Origin: a phage
DNA length: 64,000 nucleotides
Strand: one strand, 5' to 3'
Assembly: GCA_017822615.1 (NCBI GenBank)
Contig: GCA_017822615.1_4530.1
The notes under the pieces were generated by a model. That model was not told where the DNA came from. It did no database searches and saw nothing but the letters and a program-made list of their open reading frames with translations. Shown one piece after another: positions 30,004 through 39,141 of the stretch. The position numbers and the translations under genes were made by a program. Within the stretch, counting starts at the first letter, position 1. The number at the start of each line of letters is the position of its first letter.

Positions 30004-30567
30004 ATGATTTATTATATTACTCCCTATCTGACAGGAAATATCGGCAAGGCTATCAATGAAGCTATTGCCGTTCTTCCAGATGATAGTTGGGTGTGCTTAA
30101 GAGATACCGATACAATGTTCCTCCTGCCTGATCAACCATCTATGCTTGAAGAGCTTATTATGTCAAACCCGCCTTTTGATGTAATAGGTGCAACTTGTAA
30201 CAGGTTAGGTAGTGGTTATCAGCTTTTCTCTAACCAAATTAACGATGATCCAAATATTCTAAACCATATAGAATATGCTAAGATTGCAAGAGAATATCAT
30301 AAAGTGAGTGTTGAAGAAGTTCCTTTCGGAACACCTCTGGCAGGTTTCTTTTTGCTTTTTAGAAAATCATTGTGGAATGAAATTCCTTTCGAAGAAAAAT
30401 CTATCCAATTCGACCTAATTTTCTCTCGCACTTTACATGAAAAAGGAAAAAGGTTAGGATTGATGCGGGGAATGTATCTGTTTCACATTTACAGATTAGG
30501 TCAAACAAATCCTCAACGGTCTATACATCATTTATTACACTGTCACGATCACAGTAAAACTATCTAG
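30004..30567 (+). CDS. putative glycosyltransferase
   Basis: 187 aa with DTD acidic motif; weak. Confidence 0.3.
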   Translation: MIYYITPYLTGNIGKAINEAIAVLPDDSWVCLRDTDTMFLLPDQPSMLEELIMSNPPFDVIGATCNRLGSGYQLFSNQINDDPNILNHIEYAKIAREYHKVSVEEVPFGTPLAGFFLLFRKSLWNEIPFEEKSIQFDLIFSRTLHEKGKRLGLMRGMYLFHIYRLGQTNPQRSIHHLLHCHDHSKTI

Positions 30568-30575
30568 GAGAGAAA

Positions 30576-31259
30576 ATGGAAAATATTAAAATCGGAGTGG
30601 GTGTTATCACTGTAGGTGTCCGTCCACTTAAAGACTATCTTGTAACAGATCCACATGCAGATTTTCGAGTATTCAACGATCCAGATCGTAAAGGTGTAGC
30701 TTACGCCAGGAATGAACTTATGCACCAGTTTTATGAAGAAGGTTATGATTATTGGTTTATTTTTGACGACGATTGCTACCCAATCATGGAGGGATGGGAA
30801 ACATATTTTGTAGATCAAGCTGTCTCTGGAGGATGGGATTTCTTTGGTATGCCGGAGTATTTCAAAGATAAAGTTGTTGGGAGTAAAGGAGAAGTTATTC
30901 TCTGGGAACTTGCAATGTGTCAATTTGCAATGTATTCTCGTGCCGTTGTTGAGAAGATGGGTTATTTCCGCCCTTACACTCACGGCTATGGTTTTGAAGA
31001 TGCTGAATGGGTACACCGTTTGAAAGCTGCTGGTTTGAATCAGGGCATTCAGGCAATACCTTGTCCACTTCGTATCATGGCTTATATCCACCCAGACGAT
31101 GTTTTTGGAAACAATCCTATGCCTTTTGCTAATCTGACAAAAGAAGAGAAAGAAGCTGCTATTGGCATTAACTGGGAAGAATATAAAGCGTCTTTAGAAG
31201 ATATTAAAAATGGGAAAATCCGAATTTCTTATGAGGAGGCACTGGCACATGTCAAATAA
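30576..31259 (+). CDS. glycosyltransferase, GT-A (family 2-like)
   Basis: GVAYARN and FIFDDDCYP (DxD) motifs. Confidence 0.5.
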   Translation: MENIKIGVGVITVGVRPLKDYLVTDPHADFRVFNDPDRKGVAYARNELMHQFYEEGYDYWFIFDDDCYPIMEGWETYFVDQAVSGGWDFFGMPEYFKDKVVGSKGEVILWELAMCQFAMYSRAVVEKMGYFRPYTHGYGFEDAEWVHRLKAAGLNQGIQAIPCPLRIMAYIHPDDVFGNNPMPFANLTKEEKEAAIGINWEEYKASLEDIKNGKIRISYEEALAHVK

Positions 31260-32196
31260 AAAATGGACTAAACTGAAAATTGATGCAAAACCTCACAGTG
31301 GTTGTGATTATCATCGTATTGTTATACCATTTAACAACAATAATTTTCAGCCTAAGAAAGATGTTGTCGTGTTTAACCGTATTCATTCTAAAGGGGCAGA
31401 ATATGTTCTGTCCCTGAAACGTCAAGGTGTTAAGATTGTTGTAGATTTAGATGATTTCTACCAACTTAATCCAGAACATTATTTAGCAAGTTTATATGAG
31501 TCAAACACTCATGCTATTGTAGCTATGGTTAAGCTTGCCGATGTGGTCATTGTGACTACGGAATATTTGGCATATAAGATCCGTCACTTAAATAGGAATG
31601 TTGTTGTGATCCGAAATGCACTTCCTTTTGATAGCGGACAATTCACTTTGTCAAATGATCGTTCATCCGGTACCCCTGTTGTATGGGCTGGCGGTGCTAG
31701 TCACGAACCCGATTTACGACTAGTCTCTAATACTTTCGATGATGAACTTCTTACTATTGCAGGATATGAAGCATCGCAGAGTATCACAGGGCAAGAGTGG
31801 ATTAAGATCCGTAGAAATTTACCAAATGCCAAATATAAAGCTGCTGTAAAAGATTTAGATAATTACATGAGTGTTTACGAAAGTCATGCTATTGCTATAG
31901 CTCCTTTGGTAGATAATGATTTTAATAATTGTAAAAGTAATCTCAAAATCCTTGAAGCTGGGGCAAAAGGTATTCCGATTGTTTGTTCTAAGGTATTACC
32001 TTATTTTAACCCTGTAGATGCTCGCGCTGTTGCTTATGCAGAGAATAAAGCAGAATGGCATTACGAAATTGTTAAGCTTCTTCGAAATCCGAACTATCGG
32101 GAAGATCGCGGCTTGTTCTTAGCGGAACATGTTCGAACACATTATAATCTGGCAGATGCAAACGAATTGCGACGCCAGGTTATTGAAAGTTTGTAG
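31249..32196 (+). CDS. glycosyltransferase (GT-B-like), paralog 1
   Basis: start moved to ATG 31249 after GAGGAGG; C-terminal NCKSNLKILEAGAKGIPIVCS. Confidence 0.5.
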   Translation: MSNKKWTKLKIDAKPHSGCDYHRIVIPFNNNNFQPKKDVVVFNRIHSKGAEYVLSLKRQGVKIVVDLDDFYQLNPEHYLASLYESNTHAIVAMVKLADVVIVTTEYLAYKIRHLNRNVVVIRNALPFDSGQFTLSNDRSSGTPVVWAGGASHEPDLRLVSNTFDDELLTIAGYEASQSITGQEWIKIRRNLPNAKYKAAVKDLDNYMSVYESHAIAIAPLVDNDFNNCKSNLKILEAGAKGIPIVCSKVLPYFNPVDARAVAYAENKAEWHYEIVKLLRNPNYREDRGLFLAEHVRTHYNLADANELRRQVIESL

Positions 32197-32203
32197 GTGA
32201 AGT

Positions 32204-33147
32204 ATGGGACAAATAATTCTTGACAATCGTAACGGAATCAATTATAGTGTCTGCGATTTCCATAGGGTAGTGCTGCCTTACTCAAGGCAGTTCTCTTCAC
32301 AACCTAAACACAACGTTTTCGTTTTTAACGGAGTGCCAACAAAAGGTAAAGAGGGCTTTTAGCCCTTAAAAACCTGGGCTTTAAAATGGTTATGGATTTG
32401 GATGACTCTTTAGTTATTCCAAAAGGACACATGTTAGAAGGTATTTTTGAATCAGGTATTCGTGAACATTTAAAATGGTTTTTAGAGCACAGTGATCTTG
32501 TTACAACTACGACACCTGCCTTGCAAGTTGAACTTTCACAATACAATGATAATGTGCACATAATCCCTAATGGACTTCCTTACGATGAAGGTCAATTTGT
32601 GTTGACCCGTGATCGCTACTCCAAAACTCCATTAGTCTGGGCTGGAAGTGAAACACATAAACAAGATTTGGCTATCTTGCCCGATTTTGGTAAAGATCTT
32701 ACAATATGTGGTTTTCGTAGGGATTCTGAAGTTTTAAGTAGTCGTGAATGGTCTTTAATCAGGGAAAATGTAGCACCAACTTGTGTTTATGAAGGTGTAA
32801 GACCATATGCCAACTACATGGAATCTTACGATGGTCATCAAATCAGTCTTGCACCATTGATCGATAACGTGTTTAATAATGCAAAAAGCAATCTTAAAAT
32901 TCTTGAGGCAGGTGCTAAGGGTTTACCTTTAATCTGCTCTCCTCGTGAGAATTATCATACACAAGAGTTTAAAGATTTGTTATTCTTTGCTGAAACACCT
33001 TCCGAGTGGAAAGATATTACGGAATACTTATTAAGTGCTCCCGATGTTTGCATGGAGAAAGGATTAGCATTAGCTAAGTATGTCAGGACTCATTATCACA
33101 TTGATGTGTTGAATGAGCGTCGTAGACTTTTATTTGAGGAGCTATAA
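32204..33147 (+). pseudogene. glycosyltransferase paralog 2, interrupted by an apparent -1 frameshift in a TTTT run
   Basis: 52-codon N-terminal ORF (32204-32362) aligns with paralog 1 N-terminus then hits TAG; C-terminal ORF from 32386 continues the alignment in the -1 frame; junction at GGC-TTTT-AG (32354-32362). Confidence 0.45.
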
Positions 33148-33437: not shown

Positions 33438-35216
33438 GTGTCGCACATTATAACTAAATATGGATTTGATGTTGATCTTAGCAAGGAAGGGCATACAGGT
33501 TGTCCGCGCTGCATGAAAAATGGCAAGGATCGCTCTCGTAATAACCTGATGGTTTATGGATTAGATTCTAATGGAGAGCATAAAGGTGCTAAGTGCTTTG
33601 CGTGTGAATACACTATTCCTAGCGTAGAATGGTTACGAGAAAATGGTGAAGTTTTAGAAGAAGAGGAGGAGATTGTGGGTTCGGAATTTAATAAACAGAT
33701 TCATCGTAAAATTGTTCAAGAAACATCAACCAACCCACGTGGTTATCGAGGCATTAAAGAAAAAGTTTCATCTTTCTATGGTGTTCGTTATGAATACCGT
33801 CAGGAAGGGGATCAGATGGTAGTAGAAAGTTGTTTATATCCAACTACTATCGGTAAAGAATTGGTTGGTTTTAAGCGTCGTATTCATCCTAAAGATTTCA
33901 GTAAACCTATTGGTCAAGTAGGTAAAGATGTAGATCTTTTTGGACAAATTCGTTTTGCAGACCGTTCTCATACTGTGGTAATTACAGGTGGTGAACACGA
34001 TGCTCTGGCAGCTTATCAAATGCTGTCTGAAAACTTGGACAACAAATATGAACTTCCAGCAGTAGTTAGTGGCACAACTGGTGAAACCAGTATGTATAAA
34101 CAAGTTCAGGCACAATACCCTTTCTTTGAAAAATTTAAGAAGATTATTGTTTGCATGGATAATGACAAAGCAGGTAATGAGGCATTTGAAAATATTGTTA
34201 AGGTGCTGCCTCGTAACAAAGTCTACCGTATGCAGATGGATCTTAAGGATGCCAATCAGTATCTGGAAGAAGGTCGTGCAAAAGATTTCGTAAAAGCTTT
34301 TTGGAGTGCTCGTCTATACACCCCAGCAGGTGTTTATGCTTCTAATGTCTTGTATGAAGCTGCATTAGAATGCTTGGAATCCAAGATGATTACCTTGCCT
34401 CCTTTTATGCGTGTTGCTGCAAATATGCTGGGTGGTGGTTTAGTAGAGGAAGAGATTACAGTCATCCTGGCAAAGACCAGTATCGGTAAAACTTTGATGG
34501 TGAACGAGATCACCAAACATATTATTGTTGCGCACCCAGAACATACCCTAGGTATTCTGTCCTTGGAAGCAACTTATAAGAAATATTCTCGTAACCTGTT
34601 GTCCTCGTTCCTGCATATTCCTCTACACAGGAAAACACCGGAAGAGAAATTTCAAATCTTGGAAGAGAATAAAGAAAAAATCCTAGATTTTTACGAAAGA
34701 GAAGATGGATCACCACGTTTTTATGTGTGTGATGATCGTGGAGCAGATGTGGAGTCTATCAAAGAAAAAGTTTTGGAGATGATCATCTATTTTGGAGTAA
34801 CAATTCTTGTTATCGACCCTTATTCTGATTTGCTTTCTGGTATGGATGTTCAAGCCCAGGAAGAGTTAGCAACATGGTTGAAGCGCATCATGAAAGAGTA
34901 TGCTATAACTATTATCGTCATCTCACACGTTAAGAAATCGGCTAATGGTGGCAATGAACACTTAACAGAGGACGATGCAATGGGTAGTAGTTTCTTGGCT
35001 AAAGGTGCTGGTATTACCTTGGCTTTGGAACGAGATAAAGCCGCTGAAGACCCTGTAGAACGCAATACGACTCATTGCTTTATCCTAAAAAACCGTGAGT
35101 TCTCGGAAACTGGTCCGGCAGGGCAGTTTTACTATGACATTAGAACTGCAACTCTGCATGACAAAGAGCAGTATTTCAACAATCCTGCTAATTTGCCTAC
35201 GGATAGCAACTACTAA
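33438..35216 (+). CDS. bifunctional primase-helicase (Zn ribbon + TOPRIM + DnaB-like helicase)
   Basis: GTG start; CPRC...CFAC zinc ribbon, TOPRIM acidic motifs (GGEHD, CMDNDKAGNEA), Walker A AKTSIGKT, Walker B VLVIDPYSD. Confidence 0.8.
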   Translation: MSHIITKYGFDVDLSKEGHTGCPRCMKNGKDRSRNNLMVYGLDSNGEHKGAKCFACEYTIPSVEWLRENGEVLEEEEEIVGSEFNKQIHRKIVQETSTNPRGYRGIKEKVSSFYGVRYEYRQEGDQMVVESCLYPTTIGKELVGFKRRIHPKDFSKPIGQVGKDVDLFGQIRFADRSHTVVITGGEHDALAAYQMLSENLDNKYELPAVVSGTTGETSMYKQVQAQYPFFEKFKKIIVCMDNDKAGNEAFENIVKVLPRNKVYRMQMDLKDANQYLEEGRAKDFVKAFWSARLYTPAGVYASNVLYEAALECLESKMITLPPFMRVAANMLGGGLVEEEITVILAKTSIGKTLMVNEITKHIIVAHPEHTLGILSLEATYKKYSRNLLSSFLHIPLHRKTPEEKFQILEENKEKILDFYEREDGSPRFYVCDDRGADVESIKEKVLEMIIYFGVTILVIDPYSDLLSGMDVQAQEELATWLKRIMKEYAITIIVISHVKKSANGGNEHLTEDDAMGSSFLAKGAGITLALERDKAAEDPVERNTTHCFILKNREFSETGPAGQFYYDIRTATLHDKEQYFNNPANLPTDSNY

Positions 35217-35246: not shown

Positions 35247-35275
35247 TTGACAACTTTGCGGAAGGGACTTATACT
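35247..35275 (+). promoter_or_regulatory. sigma70-like promoter
   Basis: TTGACA N17 TATACT. Confidence 0.5.
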
Positions 35276-35308: not shown

Positions 35309-35740
35309 ATGCGTATGACAATCGATCTGAATGCAAAAGTTAAAGCTGCTGGTGCTCTGGGTGCTGGTGTTATTAAACACAAACAAGCGTTGGCATTTGC
35401 CATCCCACACATGATTGTTGAGGATCATCCTGAAGAGTTTGCTGTAAAAGTTGTTGAGAACAATGTCTCTGTTATTGAACATATCCCAACTGGACGTTCT
35501 TACCGTGTTGTTTCTTCTAAAGGTTTCCGTTTCGATGTAAGCCCTTCTTTCACAAAAGGTGCTGGTCGTAGTAAAGTGGGTATTCTTTCTTACAAATATT
35601 ATATCGATAAAGTTGCAGATGGTGTTGCATTCTGTCGTGTAAGTGAAGGTAAAGTAGATATCATCTTTAAAAATACCAAAAACATGGTTATTTCTGACGA
35701 TGGTAAAGTTGACCTCACTATTGAGTTCGCTAACAACTAA
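35309..35740 (+). CDS. hypothetical protein
   Basis: 143 aa, AGGAG RBS. Confidence 0.45.
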   Translation: MRMTIDLNAKVKAAGALGAGVIKHKQALAFAIPHMIVEDHPEEFAVKVVENNVSVIEHIPTGRSYRVVSSKGFRFDVSPSFTKGAGRSKVGILSYKYYIDKVADGVAFCRVSEGKVDIIFKNTKNMVISDDGKVDLTIEFANN

Positions 35741-35749
35741 GGAGGACTA

Positions 35750-36544
35750 TTGAGCAAGTTGAACACACTTGATCAATATTACACTAACCCCGCTTATGCG
35801 GGGTTCTTATGTGATAAGATCAAAGAAATTTTTGGAGAGGAAGCTAACTACGTAGAACCATCTGCGGGAGAAGGAGCTTTCTCTTCTTGTTTTAAAAACA
35901 TAACTTCTTTTGATATTGACCCTAAGTTTGAAGATTGTATTGAGGCAGATTTTTTAGCTCAATCTGTTGAGTCTGTTGGTAGTGTAACTGCTTTTGTCGG
36001 TAATCCTCCGTTTGGAAAAAATGCTAGTCTTGCCATTAAGTTCTTTAACCATTGTGCTGAAATGTTGGATAACGAAGGTGGTATTTGTTTTATCTTGCCT
36101 CGCACATTTCAAAAAATCTTTTTTGCACACAAACTAAATCCCCACATGCATCTTCTTTACGAAGAAGAATGTCCAAAAGGATCTTTTATTCTTCATGGAG
36201 AACCTTGGGATGTTCCTTGTGTATTCCAGATATGGATTAAACGCAACGAGAAGCGTTCTCCCGTTGTTTTAGGAGAGAATCGACTATTCGTATTAGGTAA
36301 CAGTAAAGACTACGATATAGCCGTTAGGAGAGCGGGAGCAAGTGCAGGTAAAGTGTTATCAGAAGAAGATTCTTTATCTGAAGCATCTACCTATTTTTTA
36401 AAAGCCTTGACTTCTGATCTTAAAACGCGTATCATTGAGGCTTACCCGTTACTTAAAGCTGAAGCTAGTAAAACTGCGGGAGTAAGAAGTTTAAGTTTAA
36501 AAGAACTTCAGTGGGTTCTGGAGAACATTAGAAAGGAGGAATAG
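35750..36544 (+). CDS. N6-adenine DNA methyltransferase (orphan)
   Basis: TTG start; SAM-binding EPSAGEGAF and catalytic NPPFG motif; no adjacent nuclease. Confidence 0.65.
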   Translation: MSKLNTLDQYYTNPAYAGFLCDKIKEIFGEEANYVEPSAGEGAFSSCFKNITSFDIDPKFEDCIEADFLAQSVESVGSVTAFVGNPPFGKNASLAIKFFNHCAEMLDNEGGICFILPRTFQKIFFAHKLNPHMHLLYEEECPKGSFILHGEPWDVPCVFQIWIKRNEKRSPVVLGENRLFVLGNSKDYDIAVRRAGASAGKVLSEEDSLSEASTYFLKALTSDLKTRIIEAYPLLKAEASKTAGVRSLSLKELQWVLENIRKEE

Positions 36545-39141
36545 TGAGTAAGTTTACATGGGATATTGAAGCAAACGGATTGTTGAATAATGACACTATT
36601 GATTATTTAGCTAGTCCTTATCGTCTCAAAGACACATTTCAAATGCACTGTATTGTCTTAGAGAACCATGAAACAGGAGAAATAGTAGCTTTCCACGATG
36701 GCCCTAAATACATCTTTGATGGGCGTCCTTATGAAGAGTCAGATGGTAAATACACATATGTTCTTAAAGAGTATGTGGCGCAAGATTACACGCATTTTCA
36801 ACTAAAAGATTTCCCAGACTTTATTAATCATGAAGGTTATTTTAAAGACAAGCCTGAATATCTGGTTGAAATGGCTGTGGCTCACAACGGTATCAACTAC
36901 GACTGGTTGGCTACAAAACTGTTTTATGGATTAGATTACAGTGTTAAATATAATACGTGGGGCAAAAATAAGGTAAAACTTATTGACTCCTTGATTTTGA
37001 GTAAAGTGTTAAACCCAGATCGAAAGATTGAGGGCAAATCAGGACATAGCTTGGCAGCACTTTCTCGAAAAGCAGGTGGTGATGTAAAAATAGATTTCCG
37101 TAAAGAGATTCCAGAAGAAGATCGATTTAAGACTTTTGCTGCGGATATGCTTTATTACTGTATCTATGACAACAAAGCCAATACTAGCGTATATAACTAC
37201 CTTATGGAAGAATGGGGTGATTATGATAAATGGGAAGGTCCATTTGAACTTGAACAACGTGTAGCAGACATTATCACACGCCAAGAACACCGTGGGTTTG
37301 CTTTTAACATGAAGCAAGCAGAAGAGAACCTTGCTTTTTTGGATGCAGAAATGGAGCGTCTTCGTTTACTCGTTGAGCCTATTTTGCCACCTAAACCAGC
37401 AACAAAAGGCTATCTTAAGGCTTTTATTCCACCTAAGTTGCAAATTAAAAAGAACTTAGAGCCAACTAACCATATGATCAATTTTGCTAAGAAACATGAT
37501 GGTCATTTGGAAGAGAGGGATGGCGATTGGTGGTTAGTTATGTTGGGGAAAGAGTGGAAACTGCCAGTTGCAGCAGATGAACCTCTATGTGATCCTAACA
37601 TCCCTGCAACATTGAACGATACAACCCATATTAAAAACTGGCTTGTAGGATTAGGTTGGGTACCGTCTGAATATAAAGATAAAGACTTAACTCTTAAATC
37701 TGGCACCAAGATTAAAAAGAGCGAGGAAGAACTTCAGAAAGGTATTCGAGCTTACGTTGAGCAAACTCTATCTTCTAATTTTTGTCAGGATCGTTGTGAT
37801 CATCTGGAGTGCACACCGGAAACCTTGGAAAGGAAGATTCAAGAGCGTATAGCAAAAGGTAAAGGTCGCGGTCTTAAAGTATTGACTAACCCATGTTTTA
37901 CCAAAGGTCAGGAAAAAGAAATCTGTCCTAACCTGCAAGCTTTGGGTGAGAAATTTCCTTATGCTACTCAGATTGTAGAATACTTAACGTATAAGCATCG
38001 TAGGAACTCTATTTTAGGTGGCGGTGCTGATTGGGAAGAAGATGAAGAAGATCAAGAATACGATAAAGGTTTCTTAGCCGCAGTAAGGGCGGATGGGCGT
38101 ATTCCTACACCAGCCGCTACATGTGATGCTGCAACCTCTCGTATGAAGCATAGGTCTGTAGCCAATATCCCTCGTGTCACATCTTTGTTTGGATGGGAGA
38201 TGCGTAACTTGTTTGGTGTAGAAGTTCCTAAATACTTCCAGATCGGTTATGACTTCGACTCTTTGGAAGCAAAGATTGAGTCGCATTATTGTTGGCGCTA
38301 CGAACCGGAGCCTCATGAATACTGTAACGCTCTCTTGTTAGAGAAGCCTAACGATGTTCATACCATGATGGCAAAACGTATTACAGATACTATTGGGCGT
38401 AAGTTTGAACGTAGTCCGGCGAAATCTGTTAAATACGGGATCACTTATGGTGCACAAGCAGACAAGGTTGCTAAAACAATTGGTAGCGATAAATACACAG
38501 GGCAACTGGTGTTCGATGCTTTCTGGGAAGCTGCATTCCCACTGGCGCGTCTTAAAGAACGTTTAAACGATTTCTGGGTTAAGACTGGTAAACAGTATGT
38601 TTTGGGTATTGACGGTCGTAAGGTTCCTACTCGTTCTGCTCACGCGATTCTTAACTCTCTGTTCCAAAGTGGTGGGGTTATCTGTGCTAAACGTGCAATG
38701 GTTATTTATGACGACATGATCGAAGAAGAAGGGCTAAGTGTTGACTTCTTTAAAGATGACTGGAAGAATAAAGACTTCGTGCAACAAATGATTGCATATC
38801 ACGATGAAGCCCAGCTTGAAGTTTCTCGTAACCTTGTAGAATTCAAATGGTTTTCACCTGAATCATTAGGTTGGAAGAAAGTAGACGATCCTGAAGAACA
38901 AAAGAAAATTGATAAAGAATGCCTTGCTAAAGTTGAAGAATGGAAGCATAATAAGGAAAAAGAGACAGGGCAAATTTGGGCTAACATTCATGAATCTCCC
39001 AAAGGTGGATGGTTTACAGCCTATAGTCGGGCAGGTGAACTTGCTGCTTTAGCTGTTACTAAGGCTGGAGAATTTTACAATCTTAATGTTCAGCTTACTG
39101 CCGGATATGATGTGGGTAACTCCTGGGCGTCCTGTCACTAG
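36544..39141 (+). CDS. DNA polymerase, family A, with 3'-5' exonuclease domain
   Basis: GTG start; Exo I WDIEANGL; polymerase motif B KSVKYGITYGA and motif C YHDEAQLEV. Confidence 0.85.
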   Translation: MSKFTWDIEANGLLNNDTIDYLASPYRLKDTFQMHCIVLENHETGEIVAFHDGPKYIFDGRPYEESDGKYTYVLKEYVAQDYTHFQLKDFPDFINHEGYFKDKPEYLVEMAVAHNGINYDWLATKLFYGLDYSVKYNTWGKNKVKLIDSLILSKVLNPDRKIEGKSGHSLAALSRKAGGDVKIDFRKEIPEEDRFKTFAADMLYYCIYDNKANTSVYNYLMEEWGDYDKWEGPFELEQRVADIITRQEHRGFAFNMKQAEENLAFLDAEMERLRLLVEPILPPKPATKGYLKAFIPPKLQIKKNLEPTNHMINFAKKHDGHLEERDGDWWLVMLGKEWKLPVAADEPLCDPNIPATLNDTTHIKNWLVGLGWVPSEYKDKDLTLKSGTKIKKSEEELQKGIRAYVEQTLSSNFCQDRCDHLECTPETLERKIQERIAKGKGRGLKVLTNPCFTKGQEKEICPNLQALGEKFPYATQIVEYLTYKHRRNSILGGGADWEEDEEDQEYDKGFLAAVRADGRIPTPAATCDAATSRMKHRSVANIPRVTSLFGWEMRNLFGVEVPKYFQIGYDFDSLEAKIESHYCWRYEPEPHEYCNALLLEKPNDVHTMMAKRITDTIGRKFERSPAKSVKYGITYGAQADKVAKTIGSDKYTGQLVFDAFWEAAFPLARLKERLNDFWVKTGKQYVLGIDGRKVPTRSAHAILNSLFQSGGVICAKRAMVIYDDMIEEEGLSVDFFKDDWKNKDFVQQMIAYHDEAQLEVSRNLVEFKWFSPESLGWKKVDDPEEQKKIDKECLAKVEEWKHNKEKETGQIWANIHESPKGGWFTAYSRAGELAALAVTKAGEFYNLNVQLTAGYDVGNSWASCH

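Follow-up and report, generated by a model that had tools for sequence, protein, structure and literature searches.

Orphan methyltransferases are common in phages, and capture from the methyltransferases of restriction-modification (R-M) systems is the classic source of anti-restriction orphans. T4 Dam and P1 Dam are solitary adenine methyltransferases of the alpha class (Pfam MethyltransfD12), and P1 DarB is a very large virion protein that unites methyltransferase and helicase domains. The gamma-class DNA adenine methyltransferases M.TaqI, M.BseCI and CamA (382-579 aa) have a full separate domain for target recognition. METTL5/COG2263 rRNA m6A methyltransferases are single-domain proteins of ~200 aa.

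The closest described counterpart of the gene studied here is gp078 of phage phAPEC8 (YP_007348556), on record as a 'putative DNA N6-adenine methyltransferase' since 2012. We analyzed a 64,000-nt stretch of phage DNA (the window; contig GCA_017822615.1_4530.1). The window region matches Escherichia phage phAPEC8_ev052 at 99.8% identity, which places it in Phapecoctavirus, and dozens of further Phapecoctavirus genomes at 98-99.6%. It carries the orthologue of gp078 in the same slot, between gp077 and DNA polymerase I, with no difference of substance. Protein identity is 97-99.6% within Phapecoctavirus (dozens of isolates) and ~54% throughout the rV5-like Vequintavirus, and remoter homologues occur in jumbo coliphages and cyanophages. 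UniRef and dozens of GenBank records carry the same N6-adenine methyltransferase name. Other records read 'hypothetical protein', 'SAM-dependent methyltransferase' or, in LR597654, 'DarB-like anti-restriction'. At the level of annotation, the identity of the methyltransferase is already known, and it is an ordinary orphan phage gene. For Phapecoctavirus, Vequintavirus, Certrevirus, Septuagintavirus and Justusliebigvirus, literature searches on the gene returned annotation-level statements only. The single experimental hint is a ClaI digest of DNA from Certrevirus CB7, which was read as Dam-type methylation, a reading that host Dam confounds and that concerns a putative orthologue only (PMC7344957).

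The gene and its place in the replication module

The gene (35750..36544, + strand) encodes 264 aa, and its motifs, profile matches, predicted fold and relatives' operons identify it as a putative orphan gamma-class N6-adenine DNA methyltransferase. The ORF begins with TTG at 35750, four nucleotides after a Shine-Dalgarno sequence (AGGAGG, 35740..35745) that shares bases with the upstream ORF's TAA stop. This start is supported by the predicted N-terminus, MSKLNTLDQYYT, which agrees in alignment with the conserved N-terminus of the homologues. A database search returned 2465 homologues at E<1e-5, and we measured motif conservation in an alignment of 58 of them (38-89% identity). An N-terminal DQYYTNP (35771..35791) resembles motif X. 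Motif I, the SAM-binding loop EPSAGEGAF (residues 36-44, 35855..35881), is followed by motif II, FDIDP (residues 54-58, 35909..35923), and by the catalytic motif IV, NPPF (residues 85-88, 36002..36013). The positions D8, T12, E36, P37, A39, G40, G42, D55, P58, N85, P86, P87 and G89 are invariant in 58/58 homologues, and F88 is nearly so. In class I methyltransferases, an acidic residue in motif II is expected as a ligand of the SAM ribose. The ORF and its motifs are confirmed as real, far above chance, and the NPPF motif and SAM-binding loop that an earlier note had read from the sequence are both present. The gamma permutation is also found, with motif I N-terminal to motif IV and a conserved C-terminal half (~residues 131-264, 36140..36541). 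This half is the presumed target-recognition region and contains the blocks VPCVFQIW, RR(A/V)G..AGK, TYF and TAGVRSLS.

On the 5' flank lies a primase/helicase gene with Toprim and DnaB-like C-terminal domains (33438..35216, +; DnaB_C 2.3e-15, Toprim_2 3.6e-9, phrog_239 2.4e-164). Directly downstream of the methyltransferase is a family A DNA polymerase I gene with a GTG start (36544..39141, +; Pfam DNA_pol_A 8.3e-14, phrog_17 2.2e-111). The methyltransferase TAG (36542-36544) shares one nucleotide with this GTG (36544). The earlier note had placed the gene between primase-helicase and DNA polymerase. The polymerase does adjoin it, but a 143-aa ORF (35309..35740, +), the equivalent of phAPEC8 gp077, separates it from the primase/helicase gene. 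This ORF belongs to phrog_9938 ('unknown function', 2e-62), has no Pfam or PADLOC match and is unrelated to the restriction-enzyme-like family described below. Small ORFs beside distant homologues were compared with it as possible kin and are unrelated.

A sigma-70-like promoter, TTGACA-17-TATACT (35247..35275, +), matches 11/12 consensus positions and is the top-scoring site in 33.0-41.5 kb, as judged by consensus match alone. The phAPEC8 record has a 'host dependent promoter' at the same place, between gp076 and gp077. On the + strand 3' of this promoter, no terminator-like site was found before 39855, past the end of the polymerase gene. From the predicted promoter, transcription probably runs through the 143-aa ORF and the methyltransferase into the polymerase gene. 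Together with the 1-nt stop/start overlap, this layout gives good support to co-expression of the methyltransferase with the replication genes, as had been proposed.

The exact gene order is not kept in other genera. The rV5-like phage AlexBoehm has the orthologue beside genes for a DnaQ-like exonuclease, EndoVII and thymidylate synthase, and the jumbo phage ph0011 has it beside endonuclease V; both neighborhoods are DNA-metabolism modules. The 3' end of the AlexBoehm orthologue shares 38 nt with a 152-aa hypothetical ORF (L091:5782-6240, +), which has no PADLOC match and is unrelated to the bacterial partner endonuclease.

Just 5' of the replication module, the window carries four consecutive genes (30004-33147, +) whose phAPEC8 counterparts, gp071-074, are annotated as glycosyltransferases, and a dTDP-rhamnose pathway is encoded in LR597654 (39310-42588 of that record). 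These enzymes could act on DNA or on a surface glycan. Compared with phAPEC8 gp074, the fourth glycosyltransferase ORF (32386..33147) has lost one T from a T-run at ~32357 (TTTTT to TTTT), and the resulting frameshift leaves 253 aa where gp074 has 314 aa. The change could reflect a pseudogene, a phase variant or a sequencing error in the homopolymer.

Profile matches and predicted fold

Sequence profiles gave an uneven picture. The best PHROG is phrog_5172 (E=1.7e-110), a family listed there as 'unknown function'. The sole Pfam match is Eco57I (PF07669), which at 15.6 bits (E=0.017) falls below the 25.3-bit gathering cut-off. Pfam N6_Mtase (PF02384) and MethyltransfD12 did not match the protein, and neither did any NCBIfam model. 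The tag PF26055, precomputed for some homologues, was not reproduced in our Pfam search and was not used. A PDB sequence search returned nothing significant, the top entry being the uncharacterised protein Ta1320 (E=0.25), a COG2263 'predicted RNA methylase' protein. Several homologues carry the JGI label 'predicted RNA methylase', and all structural neighbors in BFVD are unnamed. The PADLOC MTase_II models, by comparison, match strongly: PDLC03255 at E=1.6e-36 over residues 21-254 (profile positions 15-250 of 269), and PDLC03256 at E=4.9e-28. Since Pfam, NCBIfam, PHROGs and the PDB lent the label little support, we tested it by structure and genome context.

The confident AlphaFold model has a class I SAM-dependent methyltransferase (Rossmann) fold with the gamma-class motif order. 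It aligns over 220-232 of the 264 residues with M.BseCI, CamA and M.TaqI, with which the phage protein would share both fold and motif order. Sequence identity to these enzymes is only 14-19% with no significant match, and the phage protein is much smaller, with ~110-130 residues for target recognition where they have a full domain. RNA methyltransferases align with the Rossmann core only (137-153 residues), and the C-terminal ~110-130 residues align solely with gamma-class DNA methyltransferases. The protein is set apart from METTL5/COG2263 by the lack of significant sequence similarity, the core-only structural match, the additional conserved C-terminal half and, unlike those enzymes, relatives that are genetically linked to restriction enzymes. 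With T4 Dam and P1 Dam it has in common the concept of a solitary phage-encoded adenine methyltransferase, but its motif order differs and MethyltransfD12 does not match. The invariant catalytic motifs, the predicted fold with gamma motif order and the full-length PADLOC match support the reading of the protein as an N6-adenine methyltransferase.

The 'DarB-like anti-restriction' label in LR597654 was rejected, as the protein has 264 aa and a methyltransferase domain only. Its match to the large phrog_9133 is weak and partial (E=1.1e-7, residues 5-121), and the label appears to reflect methyltransferase-domain similarity alone.

Bacterial relatives paired with restriction-enzyme-like genes

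We scanned one genome per prokaryotic species and found 274 relatives, retaining 79 loci whose methyltransferases are 34-43% identical to the phage protein over the full length. Of 78 loci analyzed, 66 yielded the methyltransferase ORF in crude ORF calling, and the neighboring ORFs were then clustered. In 14 of these 66 loci, spanning Campylobacterota, Alpha- and Gammaproteobacteria and Verrucomicrobiota, the next downstream ORF belongs to one family of 199-228 aa (~215 aa). Overlap with the methyltransferase stop amounts to 4-20 nt in 12 loci, and in the remaining two a gap of 5-9 nt separates the ORFs. Its conserved blocks are HGKxFE, FDIE, PTSIK and LNPKIDSKxQRRLQCS. PDLC03460, a Type II restriction-enzyme model of PADLOC, matches each of the 14 (best E=5.3e-15) and two more neighbors, bringing the coupled loci to at least 16/66. 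No Pfam, NCBIfam or PDB sequence match was found for this partner endonuclease. Type II R-M operons of this kind, with a PDLC03255-like methyltransferase and a PDLC03460-like endonuclease, are found, for example, in Poseidonibacter ostreae (WFKJ01000010; L002:6001-7404), Sphingomonadales and Paracoccaceae. Several loci are defence islands, as shown by nearby C-proteins and by Type I R-M, BREX and Dpd components.

Coupling of the bacterial relatives to a Type II restriction-enzyme-like gene is the decisive line of evidence. It points to DNA as the substrate and favors the earlier assignment of the phage protein as a putative DNA modification enzyme. The phage enzyme and the R-M-linked enzymes have the same C-terminal blocks, VPCVFQIW, (R/Q)RVG..(A/T)G, (Y/H)YF and TAG(V/N)(R/P)S(L/I)(S/G/A), and the phage variant TAGVRSLS recurs in six R-M-linked enzymes, Paracoccaceae included. 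The N-terminal halves are 41% identical and the C-terminal halves 31%. This pattern would fit a shared or similar recognition sequence.

Four Erythrobacteraceae loci have a different conserved downstream ORF of 345-370 aa (L037:5842-6954, L066:5882-6943, L073:5851-6888 and L077:5882-6943, all +), which overlaps the methyltransferase stop by 8-41 nt. No PADLOC family is common to all four, and one member examined alone had no match, so we did not count these ORFs as restriction enzymes. They may represent an unrecognised restriction endonuclease family. Directly 5' of the methyltransferase-endonuclease pair of Poseidonibacter ostreae is a gene for a Type IIG restriction-methyltransferase (L002:2701-5740, +; PADLOC 1e-163) with its own specificity subunit, so that the locus, which adjoins an IS1595-family transposase, is a stacked R-M island.

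The phage enzyme differs from these bacterial methyltransferases in lacking the downstream endonuclease. Profiles of both recurrent neighbor families matched none of the six-frame ORFs of the window and nothing in LR597654, a complete 150-kb near-identical genome whose annotation lists no restriction enzyme. Nor does the gene sit in a complete Type II R-M system, its neighbors being the 143-aa ORF and DNA polymerase I. The term 'orphan' holds with respect to recognisable endonucleases, in agreement with the earlier note, which had seen no restriction endonuclease nearby. Plasmid records contained no named R-M pair of the phage methyltransferase's family, and no cognate pair was seen in enterobacterial records.

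The orphan enzyme may not be the phage's sole DNA modification function, because two further small methyltransferase-like genes occur outside the window, in a piece of LR597654 (L093). Both are labelled 'DNA methylase' and have no Pfam match. One (L093:28296-28979, -; 226 aa) has weak C5-cytosine-methylase-like PADLOC matches, and the other (L093:35390-35899, -; 168 aa) weakly matches the profile of the present family (E=1.4e-3). In another piece of the same genome, a gene between the portal and head genes that is labelled 'methyl transferase' (L094:20832-21311, +) matches Pfam Peptidase_S78_2 (E=1.4e-11). It is probably an XkdF-like prohead protease, and the label is probably wrong.

Possible roles during infection

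We think it probable that the gene product is an active, sequence-specific N6-adenine DNA methyltransferase that was once the M subunit of an R-M system and that protects the phage from cognate enzymes; from the evidence above we infer its activity, specificity, timing and benefit. The protein would comprise, in order, an N-terminal helix, motif I, motif II, motif IV (NPPF) and a compact C-terminal target-recognition region. It would descend from the M subunit of one Type II R-M family, whose R subunit is absent in the phage. Transcription would start at the host-type promoter and include the DNA polymerase gene, with probable translational coupling to the polymerase, and the enzyme would then be made during phage DNA replication. 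Using SAM, it would methylate adenine in one short recognition sequence of new phage DNA. Anti-restriction would be the most likely benefit, in the form of protection against host Type II enzymes with the cognate specificity, that is, the partner endonuclease family of its relatives, and their isoschizomers.

Such protection would have to be narrow. The BASEL study described Vequintavirinae and relatives as 'exceptionally susceptible' to R-M systems (EcoKI, EcoCFT_I, EcoRI, EcoRV, EcoP1_I and EcoCFT_II), seemingly without effective protection in the laboratory (PMC8594841). The BASEL Vequintavirus isolates carry the 54%-identical orthologue, and since these carriers are R-M-sensitive, any protection must be motif-specific. 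The lack of an R-M pair of the family in plasmid records likewise counts against a strong or broad benefit, as does the heavy reliance of the LR597654 genome on restriction-site avoidance. Relative to Markov expectation, GTAC (0.32), CCGG (0.41), GGCC (0.42) and CTAG (0.52) are depleted. Several 6-mers are avoided too, among them CTGCAG (0 vs 29.9 expected) and GCATGC (0 vs 13 expected). GATC (1.01), TGCA (1.01) and AGCT (0.93) are not avoided. We considered these palindrome statistics as a guide to the methylated motif; avoidance is strong but cannot pinpoint it.

The same susceptibility of carrier phages would suit a DNA adenine methyltransferase kept for a non-defensive job, such as marking DNA for packaging or replication, evading mismatch repair or a methyl-directed nuclease, or tuning phage gene expression. 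Dam enzymes of P1 and the T-even phages are known in such roles. Tight embedding in a replication operon, with a stop codon overlapping the polymerase start, agrees with such a job, as do the replication or repair modules around the rV5-like and jumbo phage orthologues, the lack of a cognate R-M pair in the enterobacterial records and the near-identity of the protein among isolates of the genus. We consider this explanation a reasonable rival but an unlikely one, given that the closest relatives in cells are bona fide R-M methyltransferases that share the C-terminal motifs, and that the exact position next to the polymerase is not kept outside the genus; we also know of no regulatory or packaging phenotype. 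A further view, to which we give rather little weight, is that the family is an uncharacterised, unusually compact gamma-class lineage that lacks a Pfam or NCBIfam model and has a four-block recognition region of ~110-130 residues. Its phage copies, which range from coliphages to cyanophages and often lie in replication or repair modules, would be kept for a replication-linked role rather than for defence, e.g., marking nascent DNA. That role would fit phages that are highly restriction-sensitive and reliant on site avoidance.

An RNA m6A methyltransferase akin to METTL5/COG2263, acting on host or phage rRNA or tRNA, is very improbable, as RNA methyltransferases align with a core of ~150 residues while the C-terminal half aligns only with gamma-class DNA enzymes, and as the PADLOC Type II models match over the full length. 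The operon linkage of the relatives to restriction-enzyme-like genes would make no sense for an RNA enzyme. The unusually small recognition region, and the occurrence of the family in very different phages with hosts from enterobacteria to cyanobacteria, could instead suggest a non-specific or very relaxed enzyme that methylates most adenines and protects broadly, of which M.EcoGII is an example. This is barely credible, because EcoRI, EcoRV and Type III systems strongly restrict carrier phages although their adenine-bearing sites would be blocked. The pairing of the relatives with a single conserved endonuclease family also argues for a defined recognition site.

The overall significance of a common kind of gene that is already annotated is modest. 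What the comparison adds is independent support for the label, and for DNA rather than RNA as the substrate, through the coupling of bacterial relatives to a restriction-enzyme family, for a methyltransferase family missed by Pfam and NCBIfam and of 'unknown function' in PHROGs. The bacterial partner endonuclease family offers a concrete route to the recognition sequence and to a test of protection. For phage-therapy candidates of the phAPEC8 and rV5 groups, the methylated motif would help to predict the limits that restriction sets on host range.
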